A stretch of 64,000 bases of DNA from Escherichia phage GoldenSnicker. The DNA lies in sequence record OR896832.1; one strand, given 5' to 3'. The position numbers and the translations under genes were made by a program. The notes beneath the pieces are model-generated. The model was not told the origin of the DNA. It worked only from the letters and a program-made list of their open reading frames with translations, and made no database searches. Numbering within the stretch: the first letter of the stretch is position 1; every line of letters starts with the position of its first letter. Below are positions 1 to 16,168 of the stretch, in pieces.

Positions 1-9
1 TTTTTAAAA

Positions 10-291
10 TTATTCGTGATTAGTTTCGATGTTGTACATTTTGCACCAGTTCAGCCAATCGCCCAGATCTTGATAGTTGATGCTTTTATCTGCTGCCATC
101 GTTTTTGTCTTGATACCCATATGTGCGTTATGAGTAAGCATTTTTACAGTGAACTCGATTTTATCGCCTTTAGCTTTAACATCAACCAGTTTTGTCCACT
201 GGCTACCAGCACCGCGAATGTTCATACCAACGATGTTTCCGATGTATGCTTCTTTGTTTTTCAGGATTTCGGTTGCTTTGATGAATTTCAT
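10..291 (-). CDS. hypothetical small early protein
   Basis: 93-aa ORF on minus strand in early-gene block; no recognisable motif. Confidence 0.4.
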   Translation of the reverse strand: MKFIKATEILKNKEAYIGNIVGMNIRGAGSQWTKLVDVKAKGDKIEFTVKMLTHNAHMGIKTKTMAADKSINYQDLGDWLNWCKMYNIETNHE

Positions 292-361
292 TTTTGATTC
301 TCCAGTTCGTTTCGGTATGGGTGTATTATGCTATGTTCTTACTTTGGTGTCAACAACTTTT

Positions 362-631
362 TTAGATATTTTCAGAAATAAATTTTAAAACTTGACGTAA
401 ATGTTTCTCATCTTTGATAGTCGCCGGAAGTTCTTCTTTTACTTCCTGTGCAAGATAGATATTTCCGTTCCAAGTGAAAGATCCGTCTTCGTTTACGCGA
501 TAGCTGAACATCCACTCGCAATCATTTTCGATTTCATATACACACAGAAGGGTGTAATCGTTAAAGCTATTGATTTCAAGGTCGAAGCCGTGACGTTTTG
601 CAAAGTTGGTAGTGGTTTTAGTCAGCACCAT
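362..631 (-). CDS. hypothetical small early protein
   Basis: 89-aa ORF; AGGAGA SD and early promoter cassette (672-700) immediately upstream. Confidence 0.5.
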   Translation of the reverse strand: MVLTKTTTNFAKRHGFDLEINSFNDYTLLCVYEIENDCEWMFSYRVNEDGSFTWNGNIYLAQEVKEELPATIKDEKHLRQVLKFISENI

Positions 632-671
632 TGTTTGATTCTCCTAAGTGGTATCTCGTTTCGATGGGTGT

Positions 672-700
672 ATTATGCTATAGGCGTGATCTGGTGTCAA
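672..700 (-). promoter_or_regulatory. sigma70-type early promoter (PeSL-like cassette)
   Basis: minus strand TTGACA (700..695), 17-bp spacer, CATAAT (677..672); near-identical copy at 1173-1201. Confidence 0.6.
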
Positions 701-720
701 CAACTTTTTTAAATTTTTGG

Positions 721-747
721 AAATAAAAAGCCGACACTAAGGTCGGC
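721..747 (-). terminator. rho-independent terminator
   Basis: hairpin gccgac/gtcggc followed by U-run on minus strand, directly downstream of ORF 752-1012. Confidence 0.6.
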
Positions 748-751
748 ACAT

Positions 752-1012
752 TTAAAAATTCTTGCTATATATGCAAGCCTCATAATCTAGAGGATGACCG
801 CCAATCCTACCAGGCTTAATATTCCAACCGCATCGATATTTGCTGACCATGCTAACCGTTTCGGTTCTTAGAGCATTTCTTTGCAAATCATACCCCCTAA
901 ATTCTTGTCTATAAGGACAGTCCGCTTTGCAAGTTGGTGGTTCTACGTCATTTAGCGGGTCAGAAGCAGTTGGCTTTATTATCAATTCTTTGTTTGCAAT
1001 AATCATAAGCAC
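752..1012 (-). CDS. hypothetical protein (start uncertain)
   Basis: 86-aa ORF, Cys-rich; overlaps 960-1154, so true start is probably internal. Confidence 0.3.
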   Translation of the reverse strand: MLMIIANKELIIKPTASDPLNDVEPPTCKADCPYRQEFRGYDLQRNALRTETVSMVSKYRCGWNIKPGRIGGHPLDYEACIYSKNF

Positions 1013-1154
1013 ATCTCATTGAAGGCAATTTAACATCTTCGCAATAAGTGTTGAATCCGTCAAATACAATCACTTCATATTTGACTCCATCGGCGATAGC
1101 TTTTACTTTATACCATCCATGCTTGTATAAAATCTTCATCTTCATTTCCCTCAA
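960..1154 (-). CDS. hypothetical small early protein
   Basis: 64-aa ORF downstream of promoter cassette 1173-1201; overlaps ORF 752-1012 in another frame. Confidence 0.4.
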   Translation of the reverse strand: MREMKMKILYKHGWYKVKAIADGVKYEVIVFDGFNTYCEDVKLPSMRCAYDYCKQRIDNKANCF

Positions 1155-1172
1155 TCTCGTTTCGATGTGTGT

Positions 1173-1201
1173 ATTATGCTATAGGCGTGATCTGGTGTCA
1201 A
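1173..1201 (-). promoter_or_regulatory. sigma70-type early promoter (PeSL-like cassette)
   Basis: TTGACA (1201..1196), 17 bp, CATAAT (1178..1173); part of a ~95-bp promoter+terminator repeat shared with 640-750. Confidence 0.6.
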
Positions 1202-1224
1202 TGCCTTTTTTAAAATTTTATGAA

Positions 1225-1250
1225 ATAAAAAAGCCGACACTAAGGTCGGC
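1225..1250 (-). terminator. rho-independent terminator
   Basis: same gccgac/gtcggc hairpin plus U-run as at 721-747, downstream of ORF 1259-1567. Confidence 0.6.
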
Positions 1251-1258
1251 TAATAAAA

Positions 1259-1567
1259 TCATTTAGACAAATAATCATTCTGTGCAATCCGGTCAGCATG
1301 TTCCGGCGTTACGTCAATTGCAATCACTTTAACGCGTGCTTTCTTGCGACCTGGGTTTTCTCGTAACCAGTGCTCATGACCGTGAACATTTTTATACTGC
1401 GATGCTTCTTCGAAGGTACGGATCGGACCTGGGTAATCAGCGTAAAGGATCTCTAGATCTTCAGTGATGTAAAAATATACATCGTAATTGCTGTTCTCTA
1501 GCTTAAGCAGAGACTTTCGGAACATTGGGAGATTTTCGCGGGTAAATTCAAAGATATTATCTTTCAT
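1259..1567 (-). CDS. hypothetical protein, member of HxHW/AxDV paralog family
   Basis: 102 aa; shares YxYI(T/D)EDL, HGHEHW and VIAIDV motifs with five neighbouring ORFs. Confidence 0.55.
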   Translation of the reverse strand: MKDNIFEFTRENLPMFRKSLLKLENSNYDVYFYITEDLEILYADYPGPIRTFEEASQYKNVHGHEHWLRENPGRKKARVKVIAIDVTPEHADRIAQNDYLSK

Positions 1568-1618
1568 AGTATTATCCTCAATAGTTGGATGAAAAGGGGG
1601 GGCTTAATGCCCCGTATA

Positions 1619-1906
1619 TTAAAACAGTCCTTCCTGTACACCGTAGTAGAGTTCATCGCTGATAATTTCATTAATGCGACGGTGTGCATATTCCTGATTT
1701 GCGAAGTTATCAGCAAGTTCTACTTTAGTTTCGCCGTCATGAGTCCATTTAGTGATAACTTTACCATCTGCAAATTTGAAGTTGAACTCTTTAGCTACTG
1801 CATCGCGTACCAGACGTGCGAACTTGTTGTTACGGATTGCATTATCGGTTTCGTGTGCAGCGTGAGCGAATTTGTTAACTTTCAGAGTGATAGTAATGTA
1901 TGCCAT
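1619..1906 (-). CDS. hypothetical small early protein
   Basis: 95-aa ORF; promoter cassette 1953-1981 upstream. Confidence 0.45.
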   Translation of the reverse strand: MAYITITLKVNKFAHAAHETDNAIRNNKFARLVRDAVAKEFNFKFADGKVITKWTHDGETKVELADNFANQEYAHRRINEIISDELYYGVQEGLF

Positions 1907-1952
1907 AATTTGATTCTCCTAGTTAGAAAGTGTATCTCGTTTCGATGGGTGT

Positions 1953-1981
1953 ATTATGCTATACACCCGATCTTATGTCAA
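1953..1981 (-). promoter_or_regulatory. sigma70-type early promoter (PeSL-like cassette)
   Basis: TTGACA (1981..1976), 17 bp, CATAAT (1958..1953). Confidence 0.55.
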
Positions 1982-1987
1982 CACTTT

Positions 1988-2281
1988 TTATAAAATAATT
2001 TTTTGATATTTTTCTATGATGTTCGTGTAAGTCACATCAACCGCTAGCACCGTTGCTTCGAATCCACCGTTTAGCCAATGGCTATGGTCATGGTCGTGAA
2101 AGAAACCAAGACCAGTACGAAGACCTTCTTTATATTCGGCGCGTACATTTAGATCATCATCGATAAACAGATAAAACCATGAATTTTTACTAGGATTGAT
2201 GATACAACCTTTCAGATTAGGGAGAATATCACGACTAAGAATAAACTTATCACCTACTTTGAACATAATATTAGTCCTCAC
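1988..2281 (-). CDS. hypothetical protein, HxHW/AxDV paralog family
   Basis: 97 aa; HDHDHSHW and VLAVDV motifs. Confidence 0.55.
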   Translation of the reverse strand: MRTNIMFKVGDKFILSRDILPNLKGCIINPSKNSWFYLFIDDDLNVRAEYKEGLRTGLGFFHDHDHSHWLNGGFEATVLAVDVTYTNIIEKYQKIIL

Positions 2282-2591
2282 TTATAAGGTCAAACCAATT
2301 GTTTTTCGCATAATGCTTAATGCGTGCTTGATCTGCTTCCGATGGTGATAGATTCCATGCAACCACTACAACTTCTGACGCATCGTCATCCGTTTCTGAT
2401 ACCCAATGATTGTGATTCATACAGTTATTTGCTATCGAGTGAGCAAATGATTTCATCACTGGAGACGTATAATCGTAGTAACGGATTTTCAGATTTTCAT
2501 CAACGTACAAATAGATCGTATAAGGTTTATATTCAGTAACCAGTAACAGACAGTTACGCAATTCTGGGAAAATCTTTTTAGTTAATTTCAT
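2271..2591 (-). CDS. hypothetical protein, HxHW/AxDV paralog family (start trimmed to internal Met)
   Basis: YLYVDENL and NHNHW motifs; listed ORF extends to 2672 but overlaps the next gene, so an internal start is preferred. Confidence 0.45.
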   Translation of the reverse strand: MKLTKKIFPELRNCLLLVTEYKPYTIYLYVDENLKIRYYDYTSPVMKSFAHSIANNCMNHNHWVSETDDDASEVVVVAWNLSPSEADQARIKHYAKNNWFDLISED

Positions 2592-2592
2592 T

Positions 2593-2832
2593 TTATAATC
2601 CTCGGTCTCGGCTATAGTACACGGTACGCCATACAATTTCATGTTTCGTGTCGCTCCAGCACACGATCTCATTTACTCTTAAATCTTTGTTATCAACAAA
2701 AGATGAACATTGTGACGCTTCTTTCATCATTTTATCTGCTGTTTTCTCATCAAATACAGCACAGATTTCTTTATACACTCGATAATCTTTGAATTGACTC
2801 TGGATACCCATAATTAACACCATTCCAACCAA
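2593..2832 (-). CDS. hypothetical protein, second small paralog pair
   Basis: 79 aa; SQFKDYRVYKEI...KMMKEASQC resembles neighbour 2771-3028 (SKFKDYKAYQQI...KMMEDASKC). Confidence 0.45.
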   Translation of the reverse strand: MVGMVLIMGIQSQFKDYRVYKEICAVFDEKTADKMMKEASQCSSFVDNKDLRVNEIVCWSDTKHEIVWRTVYYSRDRGL

Positions 2833-3028
2833 TTGTTTTTGAGAAAACGTTTATCCACTGTTGAGTGTAGCATGTTTCTTTCCATGATACAATACGAGTA
2901 GAATAATGGTTTTTGTTTCCAGAAAAGGACGGACATTTTGATGCATCTTCCATCATCTTTTCGGCGAACTCTGGTGCGTATACTCGCAGGATCTGTTGAT
3001 ATGCTTTATAATCTTTAAATTTGCTCAT
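2771..3028 (-). CDS. hypothetical protein, second small paralog pair
   Basis: 85 aa; paralog of 2593-2832. Confidence 0.45.
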   Translation of the reverse strand: MSKFKDYKAYQQILRVYAPEFAEKMMEDASKCPSFSGNKNHYSTRIVSWKETCYTQQWINVFSKTIGWNGVNYGYPESIQRLSSV

Positions 3029-3293
3029 AATTGTTAACTACCTTATCAGCTTCTTTTATTGTTTTTACATCAACTGCGATAATCCGTAAAGGTTCGTCGA
3101 AGGTCCACCAATGATCGTGATTATCAGCTTGTGATTTATCACCAAAGGAATCACGAATATCATTTTTACATTTATAGCTAATGTGACCGTCATAGTCAAT
3201 ATAAAGGTAATTATCGAAAATCGGCGTTTTTAAGATCATACCGAAAAATCTTTCTTTGTGTGTCTTATCCAGCGTTGCAGTAATTCGCATCAT
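3015..3293 (-). CDS. hypothetical protein, HxHW/AxDV paralog family
   Basis: 92 aa; YLYIDYDG, DNHDHWW, IIAVDV motifs. Confidence 0.55.
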   Translation of the reverse strand: MMRITATLDKTHKERFFGMILKTPIFDNYLYIDYDGHISYKCKNDIRDSFGDKSQADNHDHWWTFDEPLRIIAVDVKTIKEADKVVNNYEQI

Positions 3294-3517
3294 AATATAT
3301 TCCTCTTAGAAAGGGATGGTCATTTCTTGAGCTTGTACATTTTCGTTAGGATTAAACTTCATCCAACCGATATTGTCTACCAGTATATGCACATTTTTAT
3401 CATATCCTACGTGGGTAGTCAATACTGTATGTGCTTTACCTTCAATGATGAGTTCCATGTACTTCTGAACTTCGATAGCTTTCATTTTGATTCTCCGTTT
3501 GTTGTCTTGATGGGAGT

Positions 3518-3546
3518 ATCTTACTACTCCCTTTAATCATTGTCAA
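3518..3546 (-). promoter_or_regulatory. sigma70-type early promoter with inverted repeat
   Basis: TTGACA (3546..3541), 17 bp, TAAGAT; inverted repeat gggagta/tactccc spans the -10. Confidence 0.45.
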
Positions 3547-3549
3547 CTA

Positions 3550-3753
3550 TTATTTGTTAATTTCCGGTGCGTTGCTTGGATAGTAACCTTCTTTAACACC
3601 CAGATATTTTGCAACCATTCCGGTGATCTTCTGTGCTACTACGATATCGAATTTCAGGTAGTCTTCACCGTGGTTTGCTACAATGTATGCTTCGCATTCT
3701 GCTTTAGTCTGGAACATTTTTGATTCTCCTATATCTCGTTGGTATGTGTGCAT
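3550..3753 (-). CDS. hypothetical small early protein
   Basis: 67-aa ORF with promoter 3752-3781 upstream. Confidence 0.45.
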   Translation of the reverse strand: MHTYQRDIGESKMFQTKAECEAYIVANHGEDYLKFDIVVAQKITGMVAKYLGVKEGYYPSNAPEINK

Positions 3754-3781
3754 TATAGGGGATCACCGATCCCCTGTCAAC
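3752..3781 (-). promoter_or_regulatory. sigma70-type early promoter with palindromic spacer
   Basis: TTGACA (3781..3776), spacer containing ggggatcaccgatcccc inverted repeat, TATAAT (3757..3752). Confidence 0.55.
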
Positions 3782-3785
3782 AACT

Positions 3786-4136
3786 TTATAATGCTTTATA
3801 TGCGTATTTCATAAATTTGTCTGCCACTTCATTGGCATGTTCAGATTCTACGCCTGATTCGAGAACAATAGCTAGGTCGGTTTCGTCATTCCCGCCGTAC
3901 CAATGATTTGATGTTCGATTTTTTTCAATTGGAAATTGGTCACTTTTATCTGTGCGACAAAATACATCTAAATGCTCGTCGATGTAAAAGATCCAATCTT
4001 CATAAAGAATAACGGTATTAGCCAGATTTTTATTGCCTTCAACGAAAGGTTCGGCTACAAACAAATTAGTATGTTCCATAGTATTTTCCTCAAAATTATA
4101 CAGCTTCGTAAACTTCCCAATGTCCAACACCAGCAC
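3786..4136 (-). CDS. hypothetical protein, HxHW/AxDV paralog family (divergent)
   Basis: 116 aa; IFYIDEHL, SNHW, AIVLESGV motifs. Confidence 0.45.
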   Translation of the reverse strand: MLVLDIGKFTKLYNFEENTMEHTNLFVAEPFVEGNKNLANTVILYEDWIFYIDEHLDVFCRTDKSDQFPIEKNRTSNHWYGGNDETDLAIVLESGVESEHANEVADKFMKYAYKAL

Positions 4137-4287
4137 GCTTAACGAAAAGGTTTTCTTTTATGTTATTCATAAACGTCTGGATGGATTTAATGCGGTTTGA
4201 AGGTTTCCATTCTTCGTTGGCATTGCGTCGATACATCATAACATTACCAGTTCGCTTATATTCAGCAACCATTTTAAGACCACACAT
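4096..4287 (-). CDS. hypothetical small protein
   Basis: 63-aa ORF; overlaps 3786-4136 by about 40 nt. Confidence 0.35.
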   Translation of the reverse strand: MCGLKMVAEYKRTGNVMMYRRNANEEWKPSNRIKSIQTFMNNIKENLFVKRAGVGHWEVYEAV

Positions 4288-4343
4288 AATATTATCCTCA
4301 ATTTGTGGGAGAGTATTACCCTCCCGATTATTGTTATACTACA

Positions 4344-4646
4344 TTACGCAAAATTGCGTGTCAATGCTTCTTTTGCTGTTCCGCTAAGATTCTCGATCTC
4401 TCCTGGCATAACATCAACCGCAAGAACTTCTACAACATCCTCTGATCCTAACCAGTGAGTATGACCTTTGTAGAACTTGATATCCCATTTAACGCTATCG
4501 CTAGCCCACCACACATCACCGTCGATAAAGTTGATGTAAAGCACACTACGCCACATTGAATTAATTACTTTCAATACTGCGCCTTTCATCTCTTCCACGG
4601 TGTGGTCTTCCATTTTGAAGACCTCGCCTACCTTAACTTTTGCCAT
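4344..4646 (-). CDS. hypothetical protein, HxHW/AxDV paralog family
   Basis: 100 aa; YINFIDGD, KGHTHW, VLAVDV motifs. Confidence 0.55.
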   Translation of the reverse strand: MAKVKVGEVFKMEDHTVEEMKGAVLKVINSMWRSVLYINFIDGDVWWASDSVKWDIKFYKGHTHWLGSEDVVEVLAVDVMPGEIENLSGTAKEALTRNFA

Positions 4647-4663
4647 TTAGTCACCTCTCTTTA

Positions 4664-4843
4664 TTACATAACAATCACGCCAGCCGTTGAAAGTTGATGT
4701 TTCAACTGAGCATTTTCTGCTACCGTCAAATCAATGATTTCTTGTGACGCTGCAATCATATAGCCATTGGTGATATTGTTTTGCATCAGTTCAATGGTCT
4801 CTTCGTTGTAGCGGATTTTAGCGATGATTTCGTTGAAGTTCAT
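4664..4843 (-). CDS. hypothetical small protein (start at internal ATG)
   Basis: listed ORF 4664-4909 begins by reading through the promoter cassette; ATG at 4843..4841 follows a GGAGA SD. Confidence 0.45.
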   Translation of the reverse strand: MNFNEIIAKIRYNEETIELMQNNITNGYMIAASQEIIDLTVAENAQLKHQLSTAGVIVM

Positions 4844-4877
4844 AATTGATTCTCCTAGTTCGTTTCGGTATGTGTGT

Positions 4878-4906
4878 AGTATAGGGGATCGGTGATCCCC
4901 TGTCAA
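4878..4906 (-). promoter_or_regulatory. sigma70-type early promoter with palindromic spacer
   Basis: TTGACA (4906..4901), 17-bp spacer ggggatcggtgatcccc, TATACT (4883..4878). Confidence 0.55.
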
Positions 4907-4919
4907 CAACTTTTTTGAA

Positions 4920-5264
4920 TTATTTTTTCATGAGCTTAATGGCTTCTTCCATAGCCAACACATTTCGATAGTTAGGGTATCTTGTTAGATCGTCATACAT
5001 TCGCTTAAGGGTGGAAACTTCCTCAAACTCTGGGTTTTCAAGATACAATTGAACGAATTGTTTCTCTACCATCTCTGCTTTTAGCTTGTCTGCTTGTTCC
5101 TGTTCATATGATTTAGTTGGACCCAACACCAACAAAATGATAAAGGTGATCAACGGGCTAATGATCAACGATAGGAGAACATAACCGATAACGCTACGGT
5201 TTAAACGGCTTGCGTACATGCCTACCAGGAAAACAAAAAGGATATAGATAAACAGAAAGAACAT
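4920..5264 (-). CDS. small membrane protein
   Basis: 114 aa with two N-terminal hydrophobic segments and a charged C-terminal tail. Confidence 0.5.
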   Translation of the reverse strand: MFFLFIYILFVFLVGMYASRLNRSVIGYVLLSLIISPLITFIILLVLGPTKSYEQEQADKLKAEMVEKQFVQLYLENPEFEEVSTLKRMYDDLTRYPNYRNVLAMEEAIKLMKK

Positions 5265-5271
5265 ATAATGG

Positions 5272-5745
5272 TTACTCCTTATTTTCGCGCTCGTACTTTT
5301 CGAAATAAAATTCTACTGGCTGGTCGTGGATTGACAGCAAGCCAAAGCGTTTAGCCGCTCGCAACCCCATATTGCGCTGAATGTACTTCTGGAAGTTCTC
5401 TCGTATACACTTACGCCAGTATTCTAAGCCCATACAGCTTTTATAAAGATTGCATTGCACACACGACGGATTCATGTTATCAAGTATATCATGTTCCGGT
5501 TTATGCATTCCTACAACCTTATACTTCCACGATCCATCATCATTACGGGCAATTCGTCCCTTTTCATCATAGACTACTTTTGAGCGTCGCAATACTGGTT
5601 TGATGTGGTCTGCGTGCCAGCGATCCCCTAGTTCCTCGCCACAATAGGCACAACGTCCACCGTATTTCATTTTCAGGATCTGGCGTTGCTCTTTCTTTGA
5701 CAATTTTTTAGGTTTAGGGGCTTTCGCCCCTTCATTATCACACAT
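5272..5745 (-). CDS. HNH endonuclease (free-standing, homing-type)
   Basis: CAYCGEEL...HADHIKP...CVQCN HNH motif; overlaps 3' end of the ligase gene by 8 nt. Confidence 0.65.
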   Translation of the reverse strand: MCDNEGAKAPKPKKLSKKEQRQILKMKYGGRCAYCGEELGDRWHADHIKPVLRRSKVVYDEKGRIARNDDGSWKYKVVGMHKPEHDILDNMNPSCVQCNLYKSCMGLEYWRKCIRENFQKYIQRNMGLRAAKRFGLLSIHDQPVEFYFEKYERENKE

Positions 5746-7234
5746 CGAATACCTCTTTTACTGTATTTGCAGTGGTCTTGTCGTAGCGAATACGTTTGAT
5801 GATCGGGAGAAATAAAGAGAACTCCGGTTCATCTTCTTTACGTGATTTGCTGCGGATATACCCGTTGCATGTCATCTCAATGACTTTTCCAATCAGGTTA
5901 TGACGGTCAGCCCATAACATTTCTCGGTCAAGTTCATTTCGACGATCGAACGGAATTACACGTTCGATACCATCATCACCTTTTTCGGTTGTAGTGTCGG
6001 TTAATCCCGATCCGGTGTTAGTCATCATTCGTCCACACGCACTACGGACAGTAAAACCGCCTACCTTATTGGGGTCTTTACTATGCGGATATACATCAAC
6101 AATTTCCGCGTCGAAGTCAATCACTTCTTTAAATTTAACCTGATCTTTACTACGGCGATCTTCAAATACACCATGCAGATTTTTAAGGATAATACCTTCT
6201 AAGCCCATGTTTACATAGCGATGATATACTTCGCGAGCTTCATCGATATTGTTAACTACAGTATTTTCGATTATCTGAACACGAGGATCGTTAAGTTCTT
6301 CAACAATCTGTTTTAGTTCTTCGAATCGATCTTTATATTGCTTCGTTGCTTTCTCGTTTCCGTAATACACATCACGGTCGATAACATCCCAGACAGTGTA
6401 AACAATACATTGGGCTTCTTCTTTTGGAATAGTTCCTTTCAGTGATTTGTTGAGGATACCATTTCCGGTCTGACGATCCGCAACAACGGATTCTTTTACT
6501 GCTTCCGCTACTGGCGTTAATGGTATTTCCTCTTCTTCAAATATCCATGACAGAGTACCATCATAAACGCTCTCAACGAAGTTCTGCGCTGGTGTTTGCG
6601 AAAGGGTAGGCATATATACCAATTCGCCATCTAGAACAATTCCACGGCCTCGTAGACGCTCTAAAACAGAAAACAAATCATCCAGCCACTGGTAGGTATT
6701 ACCTGAACGGGTATAGATTGCTAATGTTTCCCCGTCAATATCAGCCATACCACGAGCGCCATCACTTTTAAGCTGTGCATATGCCGGATATTTGATATTA
6801 GCAATAGCCTTATCAGAATATGACGATGCAAGGTGGCATGGTTGCTGGGGGATCAGTTTCTTCCATACCTTGTTTGCAGTGGTAGCGGAACAACCGCATT
6901 CCAGATCACGATTCAGGACCATCATTGCAACTTTAGCATCATCTTCTGACAAGCAAGTCAGAGTATCGGTAACTAGCTGTAATGCTGCATTACCAGTTAC
7001 TTGACGCGTGGCAAGTTTATTTTTAAAGACCTGCAATGCACCGGATAAAGACAATACAGACGAATAGCGCGATGGTTTATCGTATTTCTTTACGCCAAAC
7101 GTAACCTGTTTGCAATATGCCAGATAAAAGCATTCTTTCAGCGTTTCATTGCTTGCAGATTCTTTCAGAATCTTTTCTTTCAGCGATGTTTTGTCTGTTG
7201 CTGCAAGCTGATTAATGATATTAAGAATTGACAT
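5738..7234 (-). CDS. 30: ATP-dependent DNA ligase
   Basis: colinear with T4 ligase as recalled (KLTGNAA, RDLECG, AQLKADGAR lysine motif, DGELVY). Confidence 0.85.
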   Translation of the reverse strand: MSILNIINQLAATDKTSLKEKILKESASNETLKECFYLAYCKQVTFGVKKYDKPSRYSSVLSLSGALQVFKNKLATRQVTGNAALQLVTDTLTCLSEDDAKVAMMVLNRDLECGCSATTANKVWKKLIPQQPCHLASSYSDKAIANIKYPAYAQLKSDGARGMADIDGETLAIYTRSGNTYQWLDDLFSVLERLRGRGIVLDGELVYMPTLSQTPAQNFVESVYDGTLSWIFEEEEIPLTPVAEAVKESVVADRQTGNGILNKSLKGTIPKEEAQCIVYTVWDVIDRDVYYGNEKATKQYKDRFEELKQIVEELNDPRVQIIENTVVNNIDEAREVYHRYVNMGLEGIILKNLHGVFEDRRSKDQVKFKEVIDFDAEIVDVYPHSKDPNKVGGFTVRSACGRMMTNTGSGLTDTTTEKGDDGIERVIPFDRRNELDREMLWADRHNLIGKVIEMTCNGYIRSKSRKEDEPEFSLFLPIIKRIRYDKTTANTVKEVFDV

Positions 7235-7700
7235 TTTCACCTCGTTTTGTTAAACGTTCACGAATATCATTGAGGATACTACAAAATTCCGATTCAGTCA
7301 ATATAGTCTTTAACGGATCGGTTCCACCTATACTATGACGTAATTTCTTATTTCCGGTAGAGAGTAATGCTTTACAAAATGCTGGGTTATTCCGTGCCAT
7401 CGTAACAAATGCCAGATGTACCAGTCTGTAATAATGCTCACTCATTCGATGAATCGGGCGACCCTGAAAATATAACATGTGATTCTCAATCTTTTCAGTT
7501 CTTCCGGTTCTTTTTGCTTTGCCACCGTGCATCAAAAAGATTTCTCTTTGTCTCTGAGGGTTCTTAAATCTTAGCCCCTGTAAAAATCCTTCTGTGCTGT
7601 TAATATCGCAACCAAATAGACGGAATGGTCTTTTATTGAAATTACTCAATTCACCCGATGGATAAGGTCCACCCGCATAGATATCAATTTCAGAAGTCAT
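7221..7700 (-). CDS. NADAR (DUF1768/YbiA-like) domain protein
   Basis: YAGGPY...LSNF...PF...F.S.EGFLQGLRF pattern resembling YbiA/NADAR. Confidence 0.5.
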   Translation of the reverse strand: MTSEIDIYAGGPYPSGELSNFNKRPFRLFGCDINSTEGFLQGLRFKNPQRQREIFLMHGGKAKRTGRTEKIENHMLYFQGRPIHRMSEHYYRLVHLAFVTMARNNPAFCKALLSTGNKKLRHSIGGTDPLKTILTESEFCSILNDIRERLTKRGENVNS

Positions 7701-7872
7701 TGAAACTAATCTCGCTAATCAGAGAGAACGGATCATAATCGTCATTAGGAATATCGATAGTAATCGAATGAGGATTTACCCATACACCAAACTGGTCTTC
7801 TTCGGTGAATACTTCGGTATGGATTTCGTGGATGTTTACATTCATAGTTTTCATAATAAAATTCCTTAACAA
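7690..7872 (-). CDS. hypothetical small protein
   Basis: 60-aa acidic ORF upstream of the NADAR gene. Confidence 0.35.
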   Translation of the reverse strand: MLRNFIMKTMNVNIHEIHTEVFTEEDQFGVWVNPHSITIDIPNDDYDPFSLISEISFNDF

Positions 7873-7899
7873 TCAATAACTTACAAAATCATATAGCCA

Positions 7900-7930
7900 A
7901 AATATAGGCGGGATTATTTCCCGCCGTTTA
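7900..7930 (-). terminator. rho-independent terminator
   Basis: hairpin ggcggga-ttatt-tcccgcc with U-rich flank on minus strand, downstream of gene 31. Confidence 0.55.
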
Positions 7931-7936
7931 AAATCA

Positions 7937-8260
7937 TTAACCGTAAACTACCACAATATTCTGTTTGTGCGTTACAGTCCATTTCAGGTCGATCTCTTCT
8001 TCCTTCTTAACGCCGTTAATAACGTCTGGATGAGGAACTTTATTCATCTTGCCATGTGGCAGTAAAACAGTTTTACCCAGCAATTCTTTATCTACCGTTT
8101 CACCGATATCAATAATCTTACCTACCAGCGGAATCTCGCCCATAGTGCGCTTTTGCTCAATAATGATCCCCATAGAGCTTTTTACTTCTGTCCCTGCGCT
8201 TTCTGCTTTAGCTTCAATGATCACATAGTCACCAAGTGCTTTAGGAGTTTTAACGGTCAT
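7937..8260 (-). CDS. 31: co-chaperonin GroES-like
   Basis: 107 aa; GDYVII, VPHPDV and size/position match T4 gp31. Confidence 0.7.
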   Translation of the reverse strand: MTVKTPKALGDYVIIEAKAESAGTEVKSSMGIIIEQKRTMGEIPLVGKIIDIGETVDKELLGKTVLLPHGKMNKVPHPDVINGVKKEEEIDLKWTVTHKQNIVVVYG

Positions 8261-8301
8261 AATTTTATTACCTCTTCAAATCAATACAGTTTAATGATGA
8301 A

Positions 8302-8622
8302 TTATTTATAAATTTCGACGATCTGCGCTGGAGTCAGCCCGTCTACATTAATCAGACTATCAAGCCCAAAACTACGGAAACCTTCAACTGCAATTTCATA
8401 TACTGGCAAAGATGTTTCTGATTCTTTACGCGGTTTTTCAACATTAGGAACTAACCACTTTTCGTATGTTTCGAAAGGCATCAGTGCCGGATCTCGCGTG
8501 GCGATCATCTCACGGACAGCACCATCTTTCTTAGTAAACTGCAAAGAGTGAGTACCGACCGAAAACATTTTCTTTAGTGCTTCACGAAGTGCGATATTAT
8601 CAACTTGTTCAGTCATTATCAA
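8302..8622 (-). CDS. hypothetical protein
   Basis: 106-aa ORF between gp31 and cd. Confidence 0.4.
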   Translation of the reverse strand: MIMTEQVDNIALREALKKMFSVGTHSLQFTKKDGAVREMIATRDPALMPFETYEKWLVPNVEKPRKESETSLPVYEIAVEGFRSFGLDSLINVDGLTPAQIVEIYK

Positions 8623-9115
8623 TACCCTTCAAATCAGTCAATAATGCTTTTGGAATACGCGTGATTGTAATATCTGCATTATTCAGAATATCAGCCCAAT
8701 CACGCCCACCATTTCGATCATATGTGTCGCAATAGTATAGATGTTTAATACCACTGTTTGCAATTGCTTTAGCGCAATCTGGACACGGTGAAGCAGTACA
8801 CCACATACTAGCGCCTTCAATCGATACACCGCTACGGGCAGCAAACAAAATAGCATTTAATTCAGCATGGATCTCGTTTTTCTGTGACCATGCACTATGC
8901 TCTGGTCGTTTTTCTGGGATCATTTTGCCGTCATCATCCAGCCAACCGTTTTTATGTGCATGACAGCTACAATTTACTTGCCCTGCTGGAGTTCCGTTAA
9001 ATCCAGTAGAAATGATTCGCCCGTCTTTTTCGATCAGTGCGCCTACCTTCCACGAAACACATTTAGAGTTCTTTGCGATCAGATAGGCGATCTGCATGTA
9101 AGTTTGTGACAACAT
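8609..9115 (-). CDS. cd: dCMP deaminase
   Basis: HAELNAI and PCPDCA zinc-binding deaminase motifs; 168 aa. Confidence 0.85.
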   Translation of the reverse strand: MLSQTYMQIAYLIAKNSKCVSWKVGALIEKDGRIISTGFNGTPAGQVNCSCHAHKNGWLDDDGKMIPEKRPEHSAWSQKNEIHAELNAILFAARSGVSIEGASMWCTASPCPDCAKAIANSGIKHLYYCDTYDRNGGRDWADILNNADITITRIPKALLTDLKGIDND

Positions 9116-9136
9116 AATATAATCCTCACATAGTAA

Positions 9137-9340
9137 TTAACCGTATACGCGAAAGTATTCTACTGATCCGTCGCTATACTGTTTTACATTGAATGTATTC
9201 ACACCATGATTATTTCTCATGATGACATATACACTGCGACGTTCATCGCTAAACGGCATAACTGGCGCTGGTTCAATATCAACACTAAAACCACGTTTAG
9301 CAAGTGCTTCGCCTAATTGCTTGAGTTTATCGGTAAACAT
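9137..9340 (-). CDS. hypothetical small protein
   Basis: 67-aa ORF. Confidence 0.4.
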   Translation of the reverse strand: MFTDKLKQLGEALAKRGFSVDIEPAPVMPFSDERRSVYVIMRNNHGVNTFNVKQYSDGSVEYFRVYG

Positions 9341-10218
9341 TAAAAGTCTCCGTAGTTAACCTGAAAACATTCTACACCAATTGAGCGGTACATGTCAACC
9401 ACTTGATCACGGTCATCTACTGCCAAAACAACATGATAACGCGGTGCAATTTCAGAGAAGAAAATCTCTTTCTTTACTTCATGATCGGGACGACGATCAT
9501 TAGTTTCACGTTGAAAGTGATCACTAGGTTCAATACCCTGTTCACGCAGCCATTGCAGAGTATCTTCTTCGCAAACATCCTCACGCCCTGAGCATGTAAT
9601 GATACGATAGCCATTATCACGATACAGTTTAAGCATTTCGATCACTTGCGGACGAGGTTTATCTTCTTTGACCTTTGTCCAGTCAAACGGATGACGACCG
9701 CCCTTATCCGCTAATGTCCCATCAATATCAAAGATCACTGCCTTTGGCAGCATGGTATTCGGTTTGTATACTTCTTGACCCATATATTCCTGCATCAGAT
9801 AAAATTGGTTGCGCAAATGAGAAAGTGGAATTGCTTTCTCGCCGCGATAGAAATTACGTTTCTTTAGTGTCTCAAATGATTCATTGAACACTTGTTCAGT
9901 ATACACCGCGTTAAATTCTTTTGCAAGTTCTTTGTAGAATACACGATGTTTTTCTTTCAGGTTGGTATCAGAGATAATGATACTCAATCCGCGTGATAGA
10001 GTCTCACGAGCAATCATTCTCTGAATAGACTCTACCAGCTTTTCTTTTTCCTTAGTATACTTGTATTTCAAATGCGAGTCAACACCAAACAACATAAGAC
10101 GAAGATCATCACGATTCACATTACGATAATTGCTAAACCGTTTACATGTTTCCATCGCCCATGTAGTTTTACCAGACCCAGAACAACCAACGGTTAAAAT
10201 CACTTCACATTTCGGCAT
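9340..10218 (-). CDS. pseT: polynucleotide 5'-kinase/3'-phosphatase
   Basis: P-loop GCSGSGKTTWA, HAD motif FDIDGTLA, C-terminal VECFQV...GDF as in T4 PseT; start at ATG overlapping the o-spanin stop (TAATG). Confidence 0.85.
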   Translation of the reverse strand: MPKCEVILTVGCSGSGKTTWAMETCKRFSNYRNVNRDDLRLMLFGVDSHLKYKYTKEKEKLVESIQRMIARETLSRGLSIIISDTNLKEKHRVFYKELAKEFNAVYTEQVFNESFETLKKRNFYRGEKAIPLSHLRNQFYLMQEYMGQEVYKPNTMLPKAVIFDIDGTLADKGGRHPFDWTKVKEDKPRPQVIEMLKLYRDNGYRIITCSGREDVCEEDTLQWLREQGIEPSDHFQRETNDRRPDHEVKKEIFFSEIAPRYHVVLAVDDRDQVVDMYRSIGVECFQVNYGDF

Positions 10219-10550
10219 TATTTCTCCTTCGGTTTGCACCGTTCCTCATTAAGTTCTTTTCGATAATAACACATGATCAACTTACTTTCAAGTGTATATC
10301 TCTTAATATCCGCAAGCCAGACTCTGAATTTTTGGGAGTCCTCCCACGACATAGAAACTCTAGGTTTACCGTCTATTGTATCCACTTTCAGGTCAATGTC
10401 AACTTTTTCTATTGGTGCTGGTAGTGGAGGATGTAATTTCGGTTCCTGTGAATAATGGTCCATTGTACACGAAGAAAGCGCAAATACAATAGGCAAAGCG
10501 AAGACATGGATTATGGAGGTGTGAAAATTCTTATGTGCTTTCTTAAACAT
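10218..10550 (-). CDS. o-spanin (outer-membrane lipoprotein lysis protein)
   Basis: signal peptide with lipobox LSSC, Pro-rich mature region; adjacent to the i-spanin and pseT as for T4 pseT.2. Confidence 0.55.
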   Translation of the reverse strand: MFKKAHKNFHTSIIHVFALPIVFALSSCTMDHYSQEPKLHPPLPAPIEKVDIDLKVDTIDGKPRVSMSWEDSQKFRVWLADIKRYTLESKLIMCYYRKELNEERCKPKEK

Positions 10551-10666
10551 CCAGTGTATCACGAAAATTGAAAACACCATCAGGATAATAATGCTTGCAC
10601 CTATCCACAGATAATCAACCAGATTAAAATTGCTTATCTGCTCTTGTGTAGGCAATATTTCTATGC

Positions 10667-10990
10667 TCATTTAGTAGCCTCCTTTAATTCTTCGGTAAAC
10701 TCCTTAAATGAGTCATTAAGCTGTTTCTCTACCAACTTGGGTTTTTGTGCTACTACATAGCCTCGTGTAGCGTCTTTCATTGCTTTGTTTTGTTCTTCTG
10801 CAAACTTAGTTCTTATTCCGTACATCTCCTTTTGTAGTGAGTCTACGACCTTCATCTTTTCATCGGTCTTTTTCTTATACTCTGTAAATTCCCGATTCAG
10901 TCGATCTACCTCCTTTTTATTTTCCCACCACATATTGCCACCTACCCCTAGCAACACAGAGATGATAACAATGTATATCAGCTTTGACAT
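10667..10990 (-). CDS. i-spanin (Rz-like)
   Basis: N-terminal TM helix, coiled-coil-like charged remainder; GGGGGG SD before ATG; listed ORF start at 11008 is a TTG. Confidence 0.55.
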   Translation of the reverse strand: MSKLIYIVIISVLLGVGGNMWWENKKEVDRLNREFTEYKKKTDEKMKVVDSLQKEMYGIRTKFAEEQNKAMKDATRGYVVAQKPKLVEKQLNDSFKEFTEELKEATK

Positions 10991-11011
10991 ATTACCCCCC
11001 AACGACAAAAG

Positions 11012-11035
11012 GCGGGGAACTAGCCCCGCTTATTA
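11012..11035 (-). terminator. rho-independent terminator
   Basis: hairpin gcgggg-aactag-ccccgc plus U-run on minus strand, downstream of rnlA. Confidence 0.55.
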
Positions 11036-12205
11036 TTACCAATCAATCTTATCAGCCGGAATCAGTTTCTTATAATTCCGTAGATAGTAAGTTTTCATTG
11101 AATCCAGAATACGGTCATAATCAAGACCATCAAATGCAATCATCAGACACATGAAAATATATGCTTGTGCATCACCATGTTTACGTGATTCGATAGTCGC
11201 ATTTGATGCATATGTCTTTCTGTCTTCTCCCGCGTGTGCGTTATAAAATTCTGTTGCTGTCGTGAAGGCATTGCGAAGAATAGACCTGAATGCTTCCTCG
11301 AATAGCTCGATTCGTTCCAGTGCTTCCGGTTCGCCTTCATATGCAGCACGCAAATCATCGGTTTCGCTTTCTACGACATAGTAGATCAGGTTATTAGGAA
11401 ACATCGATGTGTTTTTAATGTTATGCACACCAATATACCATTCACTCTTCACCTTGAACATTTGACCGTCTTTAGTGCGTGCAACAATTCCTTCGATACC
11501 TTCTGCGATCCGAACTTCATCAAGAATATTGCTAAAACGCGCTGAATCAACCTGTAACGCATTTACCAGATGAGGACGTAGGATTGCGTCAGAAAATAGC
11601 ATTTGATGCGGTACGTACTCTCCTGTGACGTTATGGCGTACATTCAGAAGTGTTAGCGACGGTTCAGAATATTCTACAACAATTCGGTTGCTGGGCGCTG
11701 TATATTCAAAGTTGAAAGTATAATCAGACCCAATATCAGCAATCTTAGCGCGTAGATCCGCATACTTCTCTGAATACAGAAGACCGTTTGCTCTCTCTGC
11801 CTGGCTTGAGTACAAGGCCGCTTTAGACTTCAACTGAACATAGCCATTATCAATGTATGTGCTTACTAGACTACCGTCCATTTTGTCCATGACCATTTCC
11901 ACATCTTCCGGCTTAAAGCGAGCGCGATCATTCTCGCCTAAATTAAAAAACTTCTCCATAGGACGAGATGCAATGCGGACCGGACGACCTTTATCGTCAA
12001 TTTCAAACATGATCCCGCGACACTCTAACGCATCTGGTTTATTCCACATTTCCGGTTTGCTCAAGTACAGATAACTAAAAATGCGCATACGGGTTTGCAT
12101 CGCCGTAATTTCATCTTTGTAATAGAACGTATCAGATCCGTCACATAGTGCCATCAGATTTTTGAACAATGCTAAAACTTTTTTGTTGTTTTCTTTTGTT
12201 GACAT
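11036..12205 (-). CDS. rnlA: RNA ligase 1
   Basis: PDALECRGIMFE, ASRPMEKFFNLGEN, KMDGSLVSTY (active-site Lys), KDRKTYA as in T4 Rnl1 (gene 63). Confidence 0.85.
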   Translation of the reverse strand: MSTKENNKKVLALFKNLMALCDGSDTFYYKDEITAMQTRMRIFSYLYLSKPEMWNKPDALECRGIMFEIDDKGRPVRIASRPMEKFFNLGENDRARFKPEDVEMVMDKMDGSLVSTYIDNGYVQLKSKAALYSSQAERANGLLYSEKYADLRAKIADIGSDYTFNFEYTAPSNRIVVEYSEPSLTLLNVRHNVTGEYVPHQMLFSDAILRPHLVNALQVDSARFSNILDEVRIAEGIEGIVARTKDGQMFKVKSEWYIGVHNIKNTSMFPNNLIYYVVESETDDLRAAYEGEPEALERIELFEEAFRSILRNAFTTATEFYNAHAGEDRKTYASNATIESRKHGDAQAYIFMCLMIAFDGLDYDRILDSMKTYYLRNYKKLIPADKIDW

Positions 12206-12602
12206 AATTTGTGTTCCATTCTGGTTTAAATTTGGTGATCAAAACAGGTTCTTCGATATCGGCAGTGCTTATAATATCTTTACCCGTTGGATTCTCGATG
12301 TACAACTCAAAACACTGGCGGTAATAGAATGTTACTGTCTTACCTTCCTCTAGCGCCTTATGAATATTCTTACTCTTGCGAGTATCCGCTGTTGGTGTTT
12401 GTCTGTTAATGCTAGTCCGGTAATAATTGATCCGCTTTCTGAGATTAACAGTCTGACCAATGTATACCAGTTCATCATCAACCACAATAGCGTAAAGAAC
12501 ATTTAAACGGTTTTTCTGAGGCGGTAGAATCACATCACCATCTTTACACTCTAAACATGAATATTTAACGAATCCATAGTTTTCTATTAGCTCATTAATC
12601 AT
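12141..12602 (-). CDS. denA: GIY-YIG nuclease, endonuclease II-like
   Basis: VLYAI...VYIGQT...RKRINYYR GIY-YIG core; sits between rnlA and nrdB like T4 denA; could instead be a Seg-type homing enzyme. Confidence 0.55.
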   Translation of the reverse strand: MINELIENYGFVKYSCLECKDGDVILPPQKNRLNVLYAIVVDDELVYIGQTVNLRKRINYYRTSINRQTPTADTRKSKNIHKALEEGKTVTFYYRQCFELYIENPTGKDIISTADIEEPVLITKFKPEWNTNYVNKRKQQKSFSIVQKSDGTM

Positions 12603-12626
12603 TATCCTTTCCTCACGTCACAACAA

Positions 12627-12650
12627 AGGCGGGATTTCTCCCGCCCACCT
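12627..12650 (-). terminator. rho-independent terminator
   Basis: hairpin ggcggga-tttc-tcccgcc plus U-run on minus strand. Confidence 0.5.
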
Positions 12651-12652
12651 TA

Positions 12653-13051
12653 TTAACTTTCCAGAATATCGCGAGCTTCGTTACGCTCCTTGATGATTTT
12701 CAGGACAAATTCCAGTTTTTCTTTGTTCAGCGTTCCATTTTCCATTGCTTCTTTGACGGTAAACACTCCGCCACCTTGCCCGTATACAGTGACAGTGATT
12801 TCACCTAACATCGTGGTATGAAAACCGCCAATTTTCGGTGATTCGAAAGAAACAATTACCTCGCGAACAGTATTACCGTCGTTGATTTCTGAGAGGGTAA
12901 TGTCGTTTTTGTAGGCGGTTGCTTTAACCATACGGATCAGCATAGTCTGATCTGGGGAGATGGTCATTTTGTCCATTGCATGTTGCAATGCAGCGTAACC
13001 GAAAACTTTAACGAAGTCCAGAACATCTTTGCGAGTTTGAAATTTAATCAT
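12653..13051 (-). CDS. hypothetical protein
   Basis: 132-aa ORF. Confidence 0.45.
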   Translation of the reverse strand: MIKFQTRKDVLDFVKVFGYAALQHAMDKMTISPDQTMLIRMVKATAYKNDITLSEINDGNTVREVIVSFESPKIGGFHTTMLGEITVTVYGQGGGVFTVKEAMENGTLNKEKLEFVLKIIKERNEARDILES

Positions 13052-13084
13052 CTTGATACTCCTTAGTTGTTTTGGTATGGGAGT

Positions 13085-13114
13085 ATCTTACTACTCCCGT
13101 GATATGCTGTCAAC
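13085..13114 (-). promoter_or_regulatory. early promoter cassette
   Basis: TTGACA (13114..13109) and TAAGAT with gggagta/tactccc inverted repeat. Confidence 0.45.
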
Positions 13115-13310
13115 TGCTTTTTTATGCAACCGCAAACATCAACATTTGAACATTCTTGGCTGTCTGGCTTTCAAAGTTCTGACATTCTTTGATAATGTCC
13201 TCTACTTTCTCGCCGGAGATCTCCGCGTAAGTTTCGATTGCCATTTTCAGTACCGCGTCAAAGTTGTTCATTTGATTCTCCTTAAAGTGTATTTCGTTTC
13301 GATGGGGGTA

Positions 13311-13339
13311 TATTACTACCCCCGTTTCATGCTGTCAAC
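13311..13339 (-). promoter_or_regulatory. early promoter cassette
   Basis: TTGACA (13339..13334), 17 bp, TAATAT; inverted repeat gggggta/tacccc(c). Confidence 0.5.
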
Positions 13340-13557
13340 TACTTTTTAATGACAAGTTCGAATTTTGCTACCTTGCGTCCTCGTTTATTGAAAGCAACCC
13401 ACGGACGGTTTTCAATGTAGAACAATTCTTCACCAATAATGAATACTGGCTGATTGTAAAGGCAACCCATCAGGTCACGCTGGCGAATGGTAGTAGATTC
13501 GTATACTTCGCCTACTACAAAGTGTTTGCTGATAGAGTCGGTGCAAGTAAATTTCAT
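13339..13557 (-). CDS. hypothetical small protein (internal start)
   Basis: listed ORF reads through a promoter; Met at MKFTCTD is the likely start. Confidence 0.4.
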   Translation of the reverse strand: MKFTCTDSISKHFVVGEVYESTTIRQRDLMGCLYNQPVFIIGEELFYIENRPWVAFNKRGRKVAKFELVIKK

Positions 13558-13624
13558 TTTGATTCTCCTTTGTTTTCTTGATGGGAGTATCTTACTACCC
13601 CCGTTATTCAGTGTCAACTACTTT

Positions 13625-13843
13625 TTACTTGTTGTATTCATTCCACCACTGGGTGAGCTTATCAATTATTTTTGTGTTTCTATCCAACTTCTCCCACCGT
13701 TTTCTAGGGTTTATCAACCGGAATAGGTAAGGTGTACTTGTTAAGTGAACTCGGTCAATGTAGTGATTGATGTACTGCTTTTCGATTCTAAGTTTCATCT
13801 TTTTACGATGAAAATATGCAATGACTTGTTCTTCTGTTTCCAT
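13625..13843 (-). CDS. hypothetical small protein
   Basis: 72-aa basic ORF with promoter 13868-13896 upstream. Confidence 0.4.
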   Translation of the reverse strand: METEEQVIAYFHRKKMKLRIEKQYINHYIDRVHLTSTPYLFRLINPRKRWEKLDRNTKIIDKLTQWWNEYNK

Positions 13844-13867
13844 ATGTTCCTCCGTTTCGATGGGTGC

Positions 13868-13896
13868 ATTATGCTATACCCCGATCCGATTGTCAA
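13868..13896 (-). promoter_or_regulatory. sigma70-type early promoter
   Basis: TTGACA (13896..13891), 17 bp, CATAAT (13873..13868). Confidence 0.55.
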
Positions 13897-13902
13897 CACC
13901 CA

Positions 13903-13928
13903 ATAACAAAAAAGTCGCCACTATGGGC
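13903..13928 (-). terminator. rho-independent terminator
   Basis: hairpin gtcgcc-catagt-ggcgac plus U-run on minus strand. Confidence 0.55.
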
Positions 13929-13943
13929 GACTTTGAACAAACA

Positions 13944-14420
13944 TTAATCATGACCGTGATTTGCAATATCCGCTCGCGTCTTATCTTTGTGATTTCCTAC
14001 GTCAAAGACACGATAACCATTTTCACGCAAAACTTTAATCACTTCTGGGTTATCCTCAAAGACTCCGACAACTTCATCTTTATCAAAGGATTTAATTACC
14101 TCTAATTTTATGTGATAGTCTTTACGGGAATCGGTACGGCCTCTCATAAAGATTTTATCAAAACACACCCCGTTAGAAATTAACCAATCAATTGTTTCCA
14201 TGTAAGCATGTGAACTTCGTCCGGTGAGGATGTAAATCAAATGCCCGTTGTCGGAAAGAGCATTAATAACACGAATTACATCGTAAATGGGGGAATCACC
14301 CCCACATGCCTTGTTATATTCGATCCATGACTCGACTTTATCAAGATTTTCAGTTGGCATCTTTGCTAGTCGATGCGTTGGATCTGTGATCGTAAAATCT
14401 AAATCGACAAAATATATCAT
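13944..14420 (-). CDS. HAD-family phosphatase (PseT phosphatase-domain-like)
   Basis: N-terminal DLDFTIT (DxDxT), TGR, K and DN motifs of HAD fold; 158 aa. Confidence 0.6.
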   Translation of the reverse strand: MIYFVDLDFTITDPTHRLAKMPTENLDKVESWIEYNKACGGDSPIYDVIRVINALSDNGHLIYILTGRSSHAYMETIDWLISNGVCFDKIFMRGRTDSRKDYHIKLEVIKSFDKDEVVGVFEDNPEVIKVLRENGYRVFDVGNHKDKTRADIANHGHD

Positions 14421-15577: not shown

Positions 15578-15592
15578 TAATTCACCTCACTA

Positions 15593-15760
15593 TCACTTTT
15601 TAACACAAAAGAACTTAGTATTTCTGTTTATTTCGCTATCCTGCTGCAATTCCTGCACAGCTTCAAAACAATTTTGATATGATGAAAACTCTACGCTGGT
15701 AACAGTTCCTTTATTATATACGCCTACGCTAACGGAAAGCAATAACCATAATGTAGCCAT
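15593..15760 (-). CDS. small hypothetical protein, nrdA-nrdB intergenic paralog 1
   Basis: 55 aa, translated codon by codon: MATLWLLLSVSVGVYNKG...FFCVKK; start overlaps upstream stop (TAATG). Confidence 0.45.
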   Translation of the reverse strand: MATLWLLLSVSVGVYNKGTVTSVEFSSYQNCFEAVQELQQDSEINRNTKFFCVKK

Positions 15761-15933
15761 TAGTTCACCTTTTGTTTTTCAACGCAATATAGATTCATAA
15801 AGCGTTTATTGTCTTCGCGGATAATCTCGCGAACTTTAACGCAATCCTGCTTTGTTGCAAACTCAATGCTTGACATATTTCCGTAATTATACATTGAATT
15901 GCTGATTGCAATCAATAACCATACAGTAGCCAT
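15760..15933 (-). CDS. small hypothetical protein, nrdA-nrdB intergenic paralog 2
   Basis: 57 aa: MATVWLLIAISNSMYNYG...LYCVEKQKVN; TAATG coupling at both ends. Confidence 0.45.
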   Translation of the reverse strand: MATVWLLIAISNSMYNYGNMSSIEFATKQDCVKVREIIREDNKRFMNLYCVEKQKVN

Positions 15934-16100
15934 TATCCTACAACCTCAAAACATTTATCATCAGGAAGAATCGCCCATTCTACACCGTATTCATCCTCGA
16001 CGTAGTAGCAAGTCCCATCATGTCGAGCATCATATTCATCACCAACAACAAAGCTATCAGCTAGCTCAAAATCTACAGCAACACATTTTAATTTGGTCAT
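15933..16100 (-). CDS. small hypothetical acidic protein
   Basis: 55 aa from internal ATG after GAGGA SD; listed ORF start reads through the promoter. Confidence 0.4.
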   Translation of the reverse strand: MTKLKCVAVDFELADSFVVGDEYDARHDGTCYYVEDEYGVEWAILPDDKCFEVVG

Positions 16101-16131
16101 AATAAAATCCTCACTTGTTTTTGATGGTTGT

Positions 16132-16160
16132 ATTATAGCGGGGATTTCTCCCCGCGTCAA
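16132..16160 (-). promoter_or_regulatory. sigma70-type early promoter
   Basis: TTGACG (16160..16155), 17 bp, TATAAT (16137..16132); inverted repeat ggggagaaatcccc nearby. Confidence 0.5.
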
Positions 16161-16168
16161 CACTTATT

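Follow-up and report, generated by a model that had tools for sequence, protein, structure and literature searches.

DarTG1 halts phages through ADP-ribosylation of their DNA, and the guanine-N2-ADP-ribose made by DarT1 is hydrolysed by NADAR enzymes, the catalytic residues of which have been defined (Schuller et al., Mol Cell 2023, PMC11543638). The gp30.3 proteins were subsequently described as 'phage NADARs' with a His in the last strand, a position held by Glu in YbiA and by Asp in DarG1, and the T4 enzyme removed G-ADPr but not T-ADPr in vitro (Toxins 2024, PMC11125620). NADAR subfamilies are alike in their in-vitro activity but sharply different in their in-vivo specificity. Resistance of the T-even phages to DarTG1 was mapped to gene 30.3, which was renamed adfN (Johannesman et al., bioRxiv 2024, PMC11257639; Nat Commun 2025, PMC11825919). 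T4 AdfN is both necessary and sufficient for counter-defence and strips ADP-ribose from DNA, and the RB69 allele, which ends 15 residues early and has lost the C-terminal helix, is defective (PMC11257639; PMC11825919). T4 AdfN is fully effective only in T-even infection, and a T-even factor was proposed (Nat Commun 2025, PMC11825919). The preprint had tied this context dependence to hydroxymethylcytosine (hmC) DNA (bioRxiv 2024, PMC11257639); in T4-GT7, with unmodified cytosine, the AdfN-dependent protection persists and the hmC idea was withdrawn (PMC11825919).

We analysed a window of 64,000 nucleotides from Escherichia phage GoldenSnicker (OR896832.1), which contains a 159-aa open reading frame (ORF) beside the DNA ligase gene. 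Based on sequence identity and predicted fold, its assignment as the orthologue of T4 gene 30.3/AdfN in Krischvirus (RB49-type) is essentially certain. What the literature reports on enzyme activity and on the role against DarTG1 concerns the T4 protein, and by orthology the same would hold for the RB49-type protein.

Gene 30.3 and its genomic surroundings

ORF calling on the window placed the gene on the minus strand, running from ATG to TAA, and the encoded protein starts with MTSEIDIYAGGPYPSGELSNFNKRPFRLFGCDINSTEGFLQGLRF (Table 1). Gene 30.3 lies directly upstream of the ligase gene in the same direction of transcription, within a T4-like gene order of rnlA, pseT, cd, 31.1, 31, 31.-1, 30.3, 30 and HNH. 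The ligase actually starts at ATG 7234, with GAGGTG ahead of it, and the last 14 nt of 30.3 overlap this start, an overlap that is also annotated in the RB49 record. At its other end, 30.3 has an 11-nt overlap between its start and the stop of ORF 31.-1, and ORF 31.-1 appears to be translationally coupled to 30.3. Genes 31.-1, 30.3, ligase and HNH form a tightly packed block of one direction with overlapping stop and start codons, and because of this arrangement 30.3 is probably co-expressed with the ligase. A GC-rich hairpin in the interval between gene 31 and ORF 31.-1 resembles a terminator and may delimit the 31.-1/30.3/30 block on its upstream side. A promoter and terminator scan of positions 5000-9300 gave counts not above those of shuffled sequence and was hence uninformative on expression timing.

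Table 1. Features of the gene 30.3 region (positions in the window; minus strand throughout)
Feature	Position	Strand	Basis
Gene 30, ATP-dependent DNA ligase	5738..7234	-	DNA_ligase_A_M (Pfam) 1.5e-21; PHROG 114, 3.4e-142
Gene 30.3/adfN orthologue, 159-aa single-domain phage NADAR	7221..7700	-	ORF, PF08010, PHROG 652, identity to T4 gp30.3, AF2 model, NADAR fold
C-terminal alpha-helix, residues 136-157	7230..7295	-	DSSP H136-157 on the model; aligns with T4 TILTEAEFIDVLNLLRDSL
Codon CAT, His122, last beta-strand	7335..7337	-	Next to model strand 119-121
Codon AGA, Arg44	7569..7571	-	Position of T4 K43, EcC7 K95 and Pn K50 in alignments
Codon GAA, Glu37	7590..7592	-	Equals T4 AdfN E36, E. coli C7 NADAR E88 and Phytophthora NADAR E43 in alignments
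ORF 31.-1, 54 aa from ATG 7854	7690..7854	-	PHROG 15277; gp31.-1 in RB49 record AJ550428; RB49p215
GC-rich hairpin GGCGGGAAATAATCCCGCC, then T-rich tract, gene 31/ORF 31.-1 interval	7907..7925	-	7 pairs, 6 of them G-C; consensus match only

Two of the neighbours deserve a separate comment. ORF 31.-1 evolves fast, with 43% identity to the copy at L002, the locus of a 68%-identical 30.3 orthologue, and a dN/dS of 0.28 that is above those of the genes around it. The HNH endonuclease gene (5272-5745, minus strand; PHROG 2118, 5.8e-54) shares sequence with the 3' end of the ligase gene and occupies the place where T4 carries alt.1 and alt; its presence may be due to insertion of a mobile homing endonuclease.

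The region shares 97-98.5% DNA identity with RB49/JSE-type Escherichia phages of the genus Krischvirus (Straboviridae), and the window maps to RB49 from ~117,965 through the genome end and on from 1 to 18,711. All 59 Krischvirus records have an intact, full-length 30.3 with 96.9-99.4% identity. Its dN/dS in the comparison of the window with L002 is ~0.12, next to 0.11 for rnlA, 0.16 for pseT and 0.07 for cd among the neighbouring enzyme genes, all of these being rough ratios with dS near saturation; 30.3 is under purifying selection. In the phage collection, each of the 59 genomes labels the product 'hypothetical protein' or 'gp30.3', the same applies to nearly all listed T4-like records of other genera, and the RB49 records already use the name 30.3.

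Family assignment and predicted fold

The 159-aa protein scored 129.2 bits with Pfam PF08010 (Phage_30_3; cut-off 36, E = 1.3e-37) in an alignment that spans positions 2-138 of the 138-position profile, and it matched PHROG 652 at 1.4e-44; it is 38% identical to T4 gp30.3 over the full length (E = 3e-30). Since a search with the single sequence returned 7 matches, sampling of the family needed alignment-seeded and representative searches: the former gave more than 4,400 proteins, and 957 were obtained at E ≤ 0.001 when the 50%-identity representatives were searched exhaustively. The family was also found by tblastn in 1,509 phage records. Because of the PF08010 match, this distribution among phages and the dN/dS value, 30.3 is a genuine gene rather than an ORF occurring by chance.

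The first-pass annotation had called the ORF NADAR-like from the string IYAGGPYPSGELSNFNKRPFRLFGCDINSTEGFLQGLRF, which is indeed present in the protein, and a match to the NADAR Pfam model was to be expected from that claim. It was not obtained: the general NADAR model PF08719 scored 14.8 bits (E = 0.035), which is below its gathering score of 35.1, NCBIfam NF053876 (13.6 bits) and the PDB sequence profile (E = 0.23) were likewise sub-threshold, and PADLOC gave no match. Direct profile evidence for NADAR was therefore dropped. Among 25 members of the family, 19 matched PF08719 weakly, the best at 1.3e-4. With the NADAR profiles sub-threshold, structure comparison was needed. The AF2 model, built from a 25-sequence alignment, had a mean pLDDT of 90.1 and a pTM of 0.86 and displays a helical core flanked by two small beta-sheets, as in the NADAR (YbiA) fold. 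Foldseek against the PDB identified E. coli YbiA, 2B3W (E = 5e-6, TM 0.64), and the Phytophthora NADAR with ADP-ribose, 8BAU (probability 1.0), and all other matches were noise. The relationship to the NADAR superfamily is thus one of predicted fold and not of the PF08719 profile, and on that footing the NADAR-like designation has held up. The C-terminal helix, lost in the RB69 allele, is intact in the window protein.

Domain architecture varies within the family. Some members of ~290 aa have two tandem gp30.3 domains (P0110, P0112, P0183, P0220 and P0250), and in P0183 and P0220 one copy has Ala or Gln in place of the catalytic Glu together with Arg at the Lys position; this Glu-less copy may be a degenerate pseudo-enzyme. 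In very many proteins of ~322 aa (P0009-P0118), the gp30.3 domain is fused to an NT5C-type 5'(3')-deoxyribonucleotidase (PF06941). For a few of these fusions a source is named, and it is a metagenome bin of Muribaculaceae or Prevotellaceae. Vibrio phage VH7D has the two as individual genes that overlap, 30.3 on its own and one for a 5'(3')-deoxyribonucleotidase (locus L005, 2507-3458).

Active-site residues, proposed function and alternatives

Glu37 lies within the invariant SxEGFLQ motif, and its column contained Glu in 270 of the 278 aligned family rows. The equivalent catalytic Glu contacts the distal ribose (T4 E36, EcC7 E88, Pn E43). At the column of His122, 268 of 278 rows had His, the residue characteristic of the phage NADARs. 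The protein departs from the canonical active site at Arg44, seven residues after the catalytic Glu, where a natural Lys-to-Arg variant keeps the basic character in a non-canonical form. The 278 domain rows had Lys in 260 cases, Arg in 11 (~4%), Thr in two, Gln in two and Glu in one, with two gaps. The Lys at this position (T4 K43, EcC7 K95, Pn K50) coordinates the pyrophosphate and adenine, and a K95R substitution in E. coli C7 DarG1 kept hydrolysis of guanine-ADPr in vitro but lost rescue from DarT1 in vivo (PMC11543638). In T4, even K43A still rescued partially (PMC11825919).

The Arg is common to the Krischvirus cluster, the 68%-identical orthologue P0002/L002, an Acinetobacter T4-like phage and a few metagenomic lineages, and the Glu-Arg-His triad is intact in at least two to three separate groups. 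T4 has Lys, as do T4-like phages of Aeromonas, Vibrio, Klebsiella and Sinorhizobium. The phages of these four hosts are not known to contain hmC. The occurrence of Lys in them led us to reject the idea that Arg marks phages whose DNA is unmodified. Most likely, Arg44 stands in for the Lys in phosphate binding, and it may have a quantitative effect on activity. Membership of the family, as judged by homology, is unaffected by the change, and from sequence evidence we conclude that Krischvirus gp30.3 should be a functional protein.

The product of 30.3 is a NADAR enzyme reduced to a single domain and would be synthesised in the course of phage infection. Going by homology, this enzyme would bind the ADP-ribose that DarT1 places on guanine N2 in DNA and cleave the N-glycosidic bond, with Glu37 and His122 flanking the distal ribose and Arg44, instead of Lys, holding the pyrophosphate and adenine. 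The base would thereby be repaired to its normal form, allowing replication to proceed in DarTG1 hosts. Judged from orthology, anti-DarT1 de-ADP-ribosylation of DNA is the probable function of RB49-type gp30.3; we stop short of a firmer statement because the evidence comes from T4 and one active-site residue differs. The 38% identity to T4 AdfN and the sub-threshold scores with the NADAR profiles were also counted against a shared function. In current taxonomy Krischvirus lies outside the Tevenvirinae, so a T-even-type partner of AdfN may be absent. A literature search on Krischvirus and DarTG found nothing. The anti-defence role against DarT that had been suggested for this gene is supported by its orthology to T4 AdfN, a published anti-DarTG1 NADAR; the reading is correct, but it had been published before.

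DNA modification was considered as a possible dependence of the orthologue. RB49 DNA was reported to be unmodified, and gp42, alpha-gt and beta-gt were absent genome-wide when the window and RB49 were searched, the sole weak gp42 match being thymidylate synthase. Since T4-GT7, with its unmodified cytosine, is still protected by AdfN (PMC11825919), dependence on hmC was dropped, and the unmodified DNA of Krischvirus is no obstacle to the proposed function. The thymidylate synthase ORF itself (18480-19700, minus strand; 406 aa) matched its Pfam profile in two stretches, with residues 250-406 corresponding to profile positions 110-266, which suggests an in-frame insertion of ~140 aa relative to an ordinary ThyA. 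A homologue of the T4 gp56 dCTPase/dUTPase with 49% identity (54782-55297, minus strand) is encoded despite the lack of hydroxymethylase and glucosyltransferases, and presumably acts as a dUTPase.

The Arg44 version found in Krischvirus and the Acinetobacter phage might be weakened or re-tuned, i.e., a poor antagonist of DarT1 in vivo or an enzyme for another base or sequence context. This would agree with the predominance of Lys in the column, with the EcC7 K95R enzyme that hydrolyses in vitro without rescuing in vivo, and with the discrepancy between the in-vitro and in-vivo behaviour of NADAR subfamilies. We consider it unlikely, as the Arg allele has gone to fixation in Krischvirus (59 of 59 genomes, with the gene intact), has been retained over 32% protein divergence at a dN/dS of 0.12, and occurs alongside intact Glu and His in several lineages. 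Moreover, even T4 K43A partly rescues, so the effect of an Arg is expected to be milder. It is likewise doubtful that Arg44 marks a functionally distinct AdfN subtype, whether directed at another DarT-like toxin or ADP-ribosylated substrate, or needing no T-even co-factor.

A substrate other than DarT1-modified DNA, such as ADP-ribosylated RNA, soluble ADP-ribose-derived immune signals or Alt/ModB adducts, is very improbable. In its favor, all NADAR families, those of phages included, were reported to remove G-ADPr from RNA as well (PMC12945103); RB49 encodes Alt, an Alt-like ART and ModB; and the repeated occurrence of the domain fused to, or next to, a 5'(3')-deoxyribonucleotidase is a hint of chemistry at the nucleotide level. 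However, T4 genetics links gp30.3 directly to DarTG1 resistance and to the levels of ADP-ribose on DNA, for which the alternative substrates have no counterpart, and the summary table of PMC12945103 does not list phage NADARs among the families that remove C-ADPr. A side observation is that the RB49 Tk.4 protein (L010, 40-495, outside the window) is annotated with an A1pp phosphatase motif; Tk.4 may be a second ADP-ribose-processing enzyme of RB49 besides the NADAR.

That gp30.3 is a DNA-repair accessory working with the adjacent ligase can be given almost no credence: the 14-nt stop/start overlap, with probable co-translation, and the same order in RB49, L002 and an Acinetobacter phage would be in keeping with it, but T4 has 30.1 and 30.2 between 30.3 and the ligase, one gene intervenes in the Acinetobacter phage, 30.3 is found in a tRNA cluster in 44RR2.8t, beside the 5'(3')-deoxyribonucleotidase and gp47/46 in VH7D and among hypothetical genes in phiM12, and NADAR chemistry by its mechanism yields an intact base with no nick to seal (PMC11543638). 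Functional coupling was rejected when five other genera were compared and the adjacency was not kept. Of what the first-pass annotation had made of the ligase neighbour, the adjacency therefore stands, down to the overlap of the two genes, but the functional meaning does not; the neighbourhood is an inherited T4-type gene order.

With anti-DarT1 de-ADP-ribosylation as the preferred reading, the practical value of the assignment lies in correcting the annotation 'hypothetical protein', since the function of the family was published in 2023-2025. RB49-type candidates for phage therapy are predicted to be resistant to the defence of E. coli that carry DarTG1. A modest scientific point concerns the natural Arg variant, which may act as the engineered DarG1 K95R does or as the wild type.

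Comparison with known systems

The closest system is T4 AdfN, with which the window protein shares the single-domain NADAR core, the catalytic Glu, the last-strand His, the C-terminal helix and a location in the same T4-like genome region. It differs by Arg44 in place of Lys43 and by a 9-residue C-terminal extension. In contrast to T4, the gene abuts the ligase gene directly, with no homologues of 30.1 or 30.2. The ORF list contained no same-strand ORF of at least 40 aa inside 30.3; an internal, out-of-frame ORF like T4 30.3' was rejected on this basis and is a further difference from T4. The window phage also has unmodified cytosine and no AdfA: a homologue of AdfA (gp61.2, the other anti-DarT1 factor) was not found in the phage, though the flanking gp61.1 was.

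DarG1 of E. coli C7 and G. lovleyi (PDB 8BAT) is paired with a DarT1 gene, has a catalytic Asp in the last strand where the window protein has His122, and at ~230 aa includes an N-terminal DNA-channel extension that the 159-aa protein lacks. The window gene is an orphan NADAR, its neighbours being ORF 31.-1, gene 31, the ligase and the HNH gene; neither a DarT1 or DarT-like gene nor an ART domain was detected near 30.3 among the ORFs or by Pfam and PHROG, nor by PADLOC. T4 AdfN cannot replace DarG1 in uninfected cells. YbiA (PDB 2B3W) has Glu in the last strand instead of His122, is linked to N-glycosidase activity on a riboflavin intermediate and to a LexA operon, and is ~17-21% identical to the window protein, with the marginal profile match given above. 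AdfN-Bas32 and AdfN-Bas60, from T5-like phages and Vequintavirinae, are also phage-encoded orphan NADARs that counter DarTG1. They belong to other NADAR branches that were acquired independently and, unlike T4 AdfN, need no phage infection to neutralise DarT1. The window protein falls into the gp30.3 branch and not into these, and is an ordinary member of an already characterised anti-defence family, the AdfN/gp30.3 phage NADARs.
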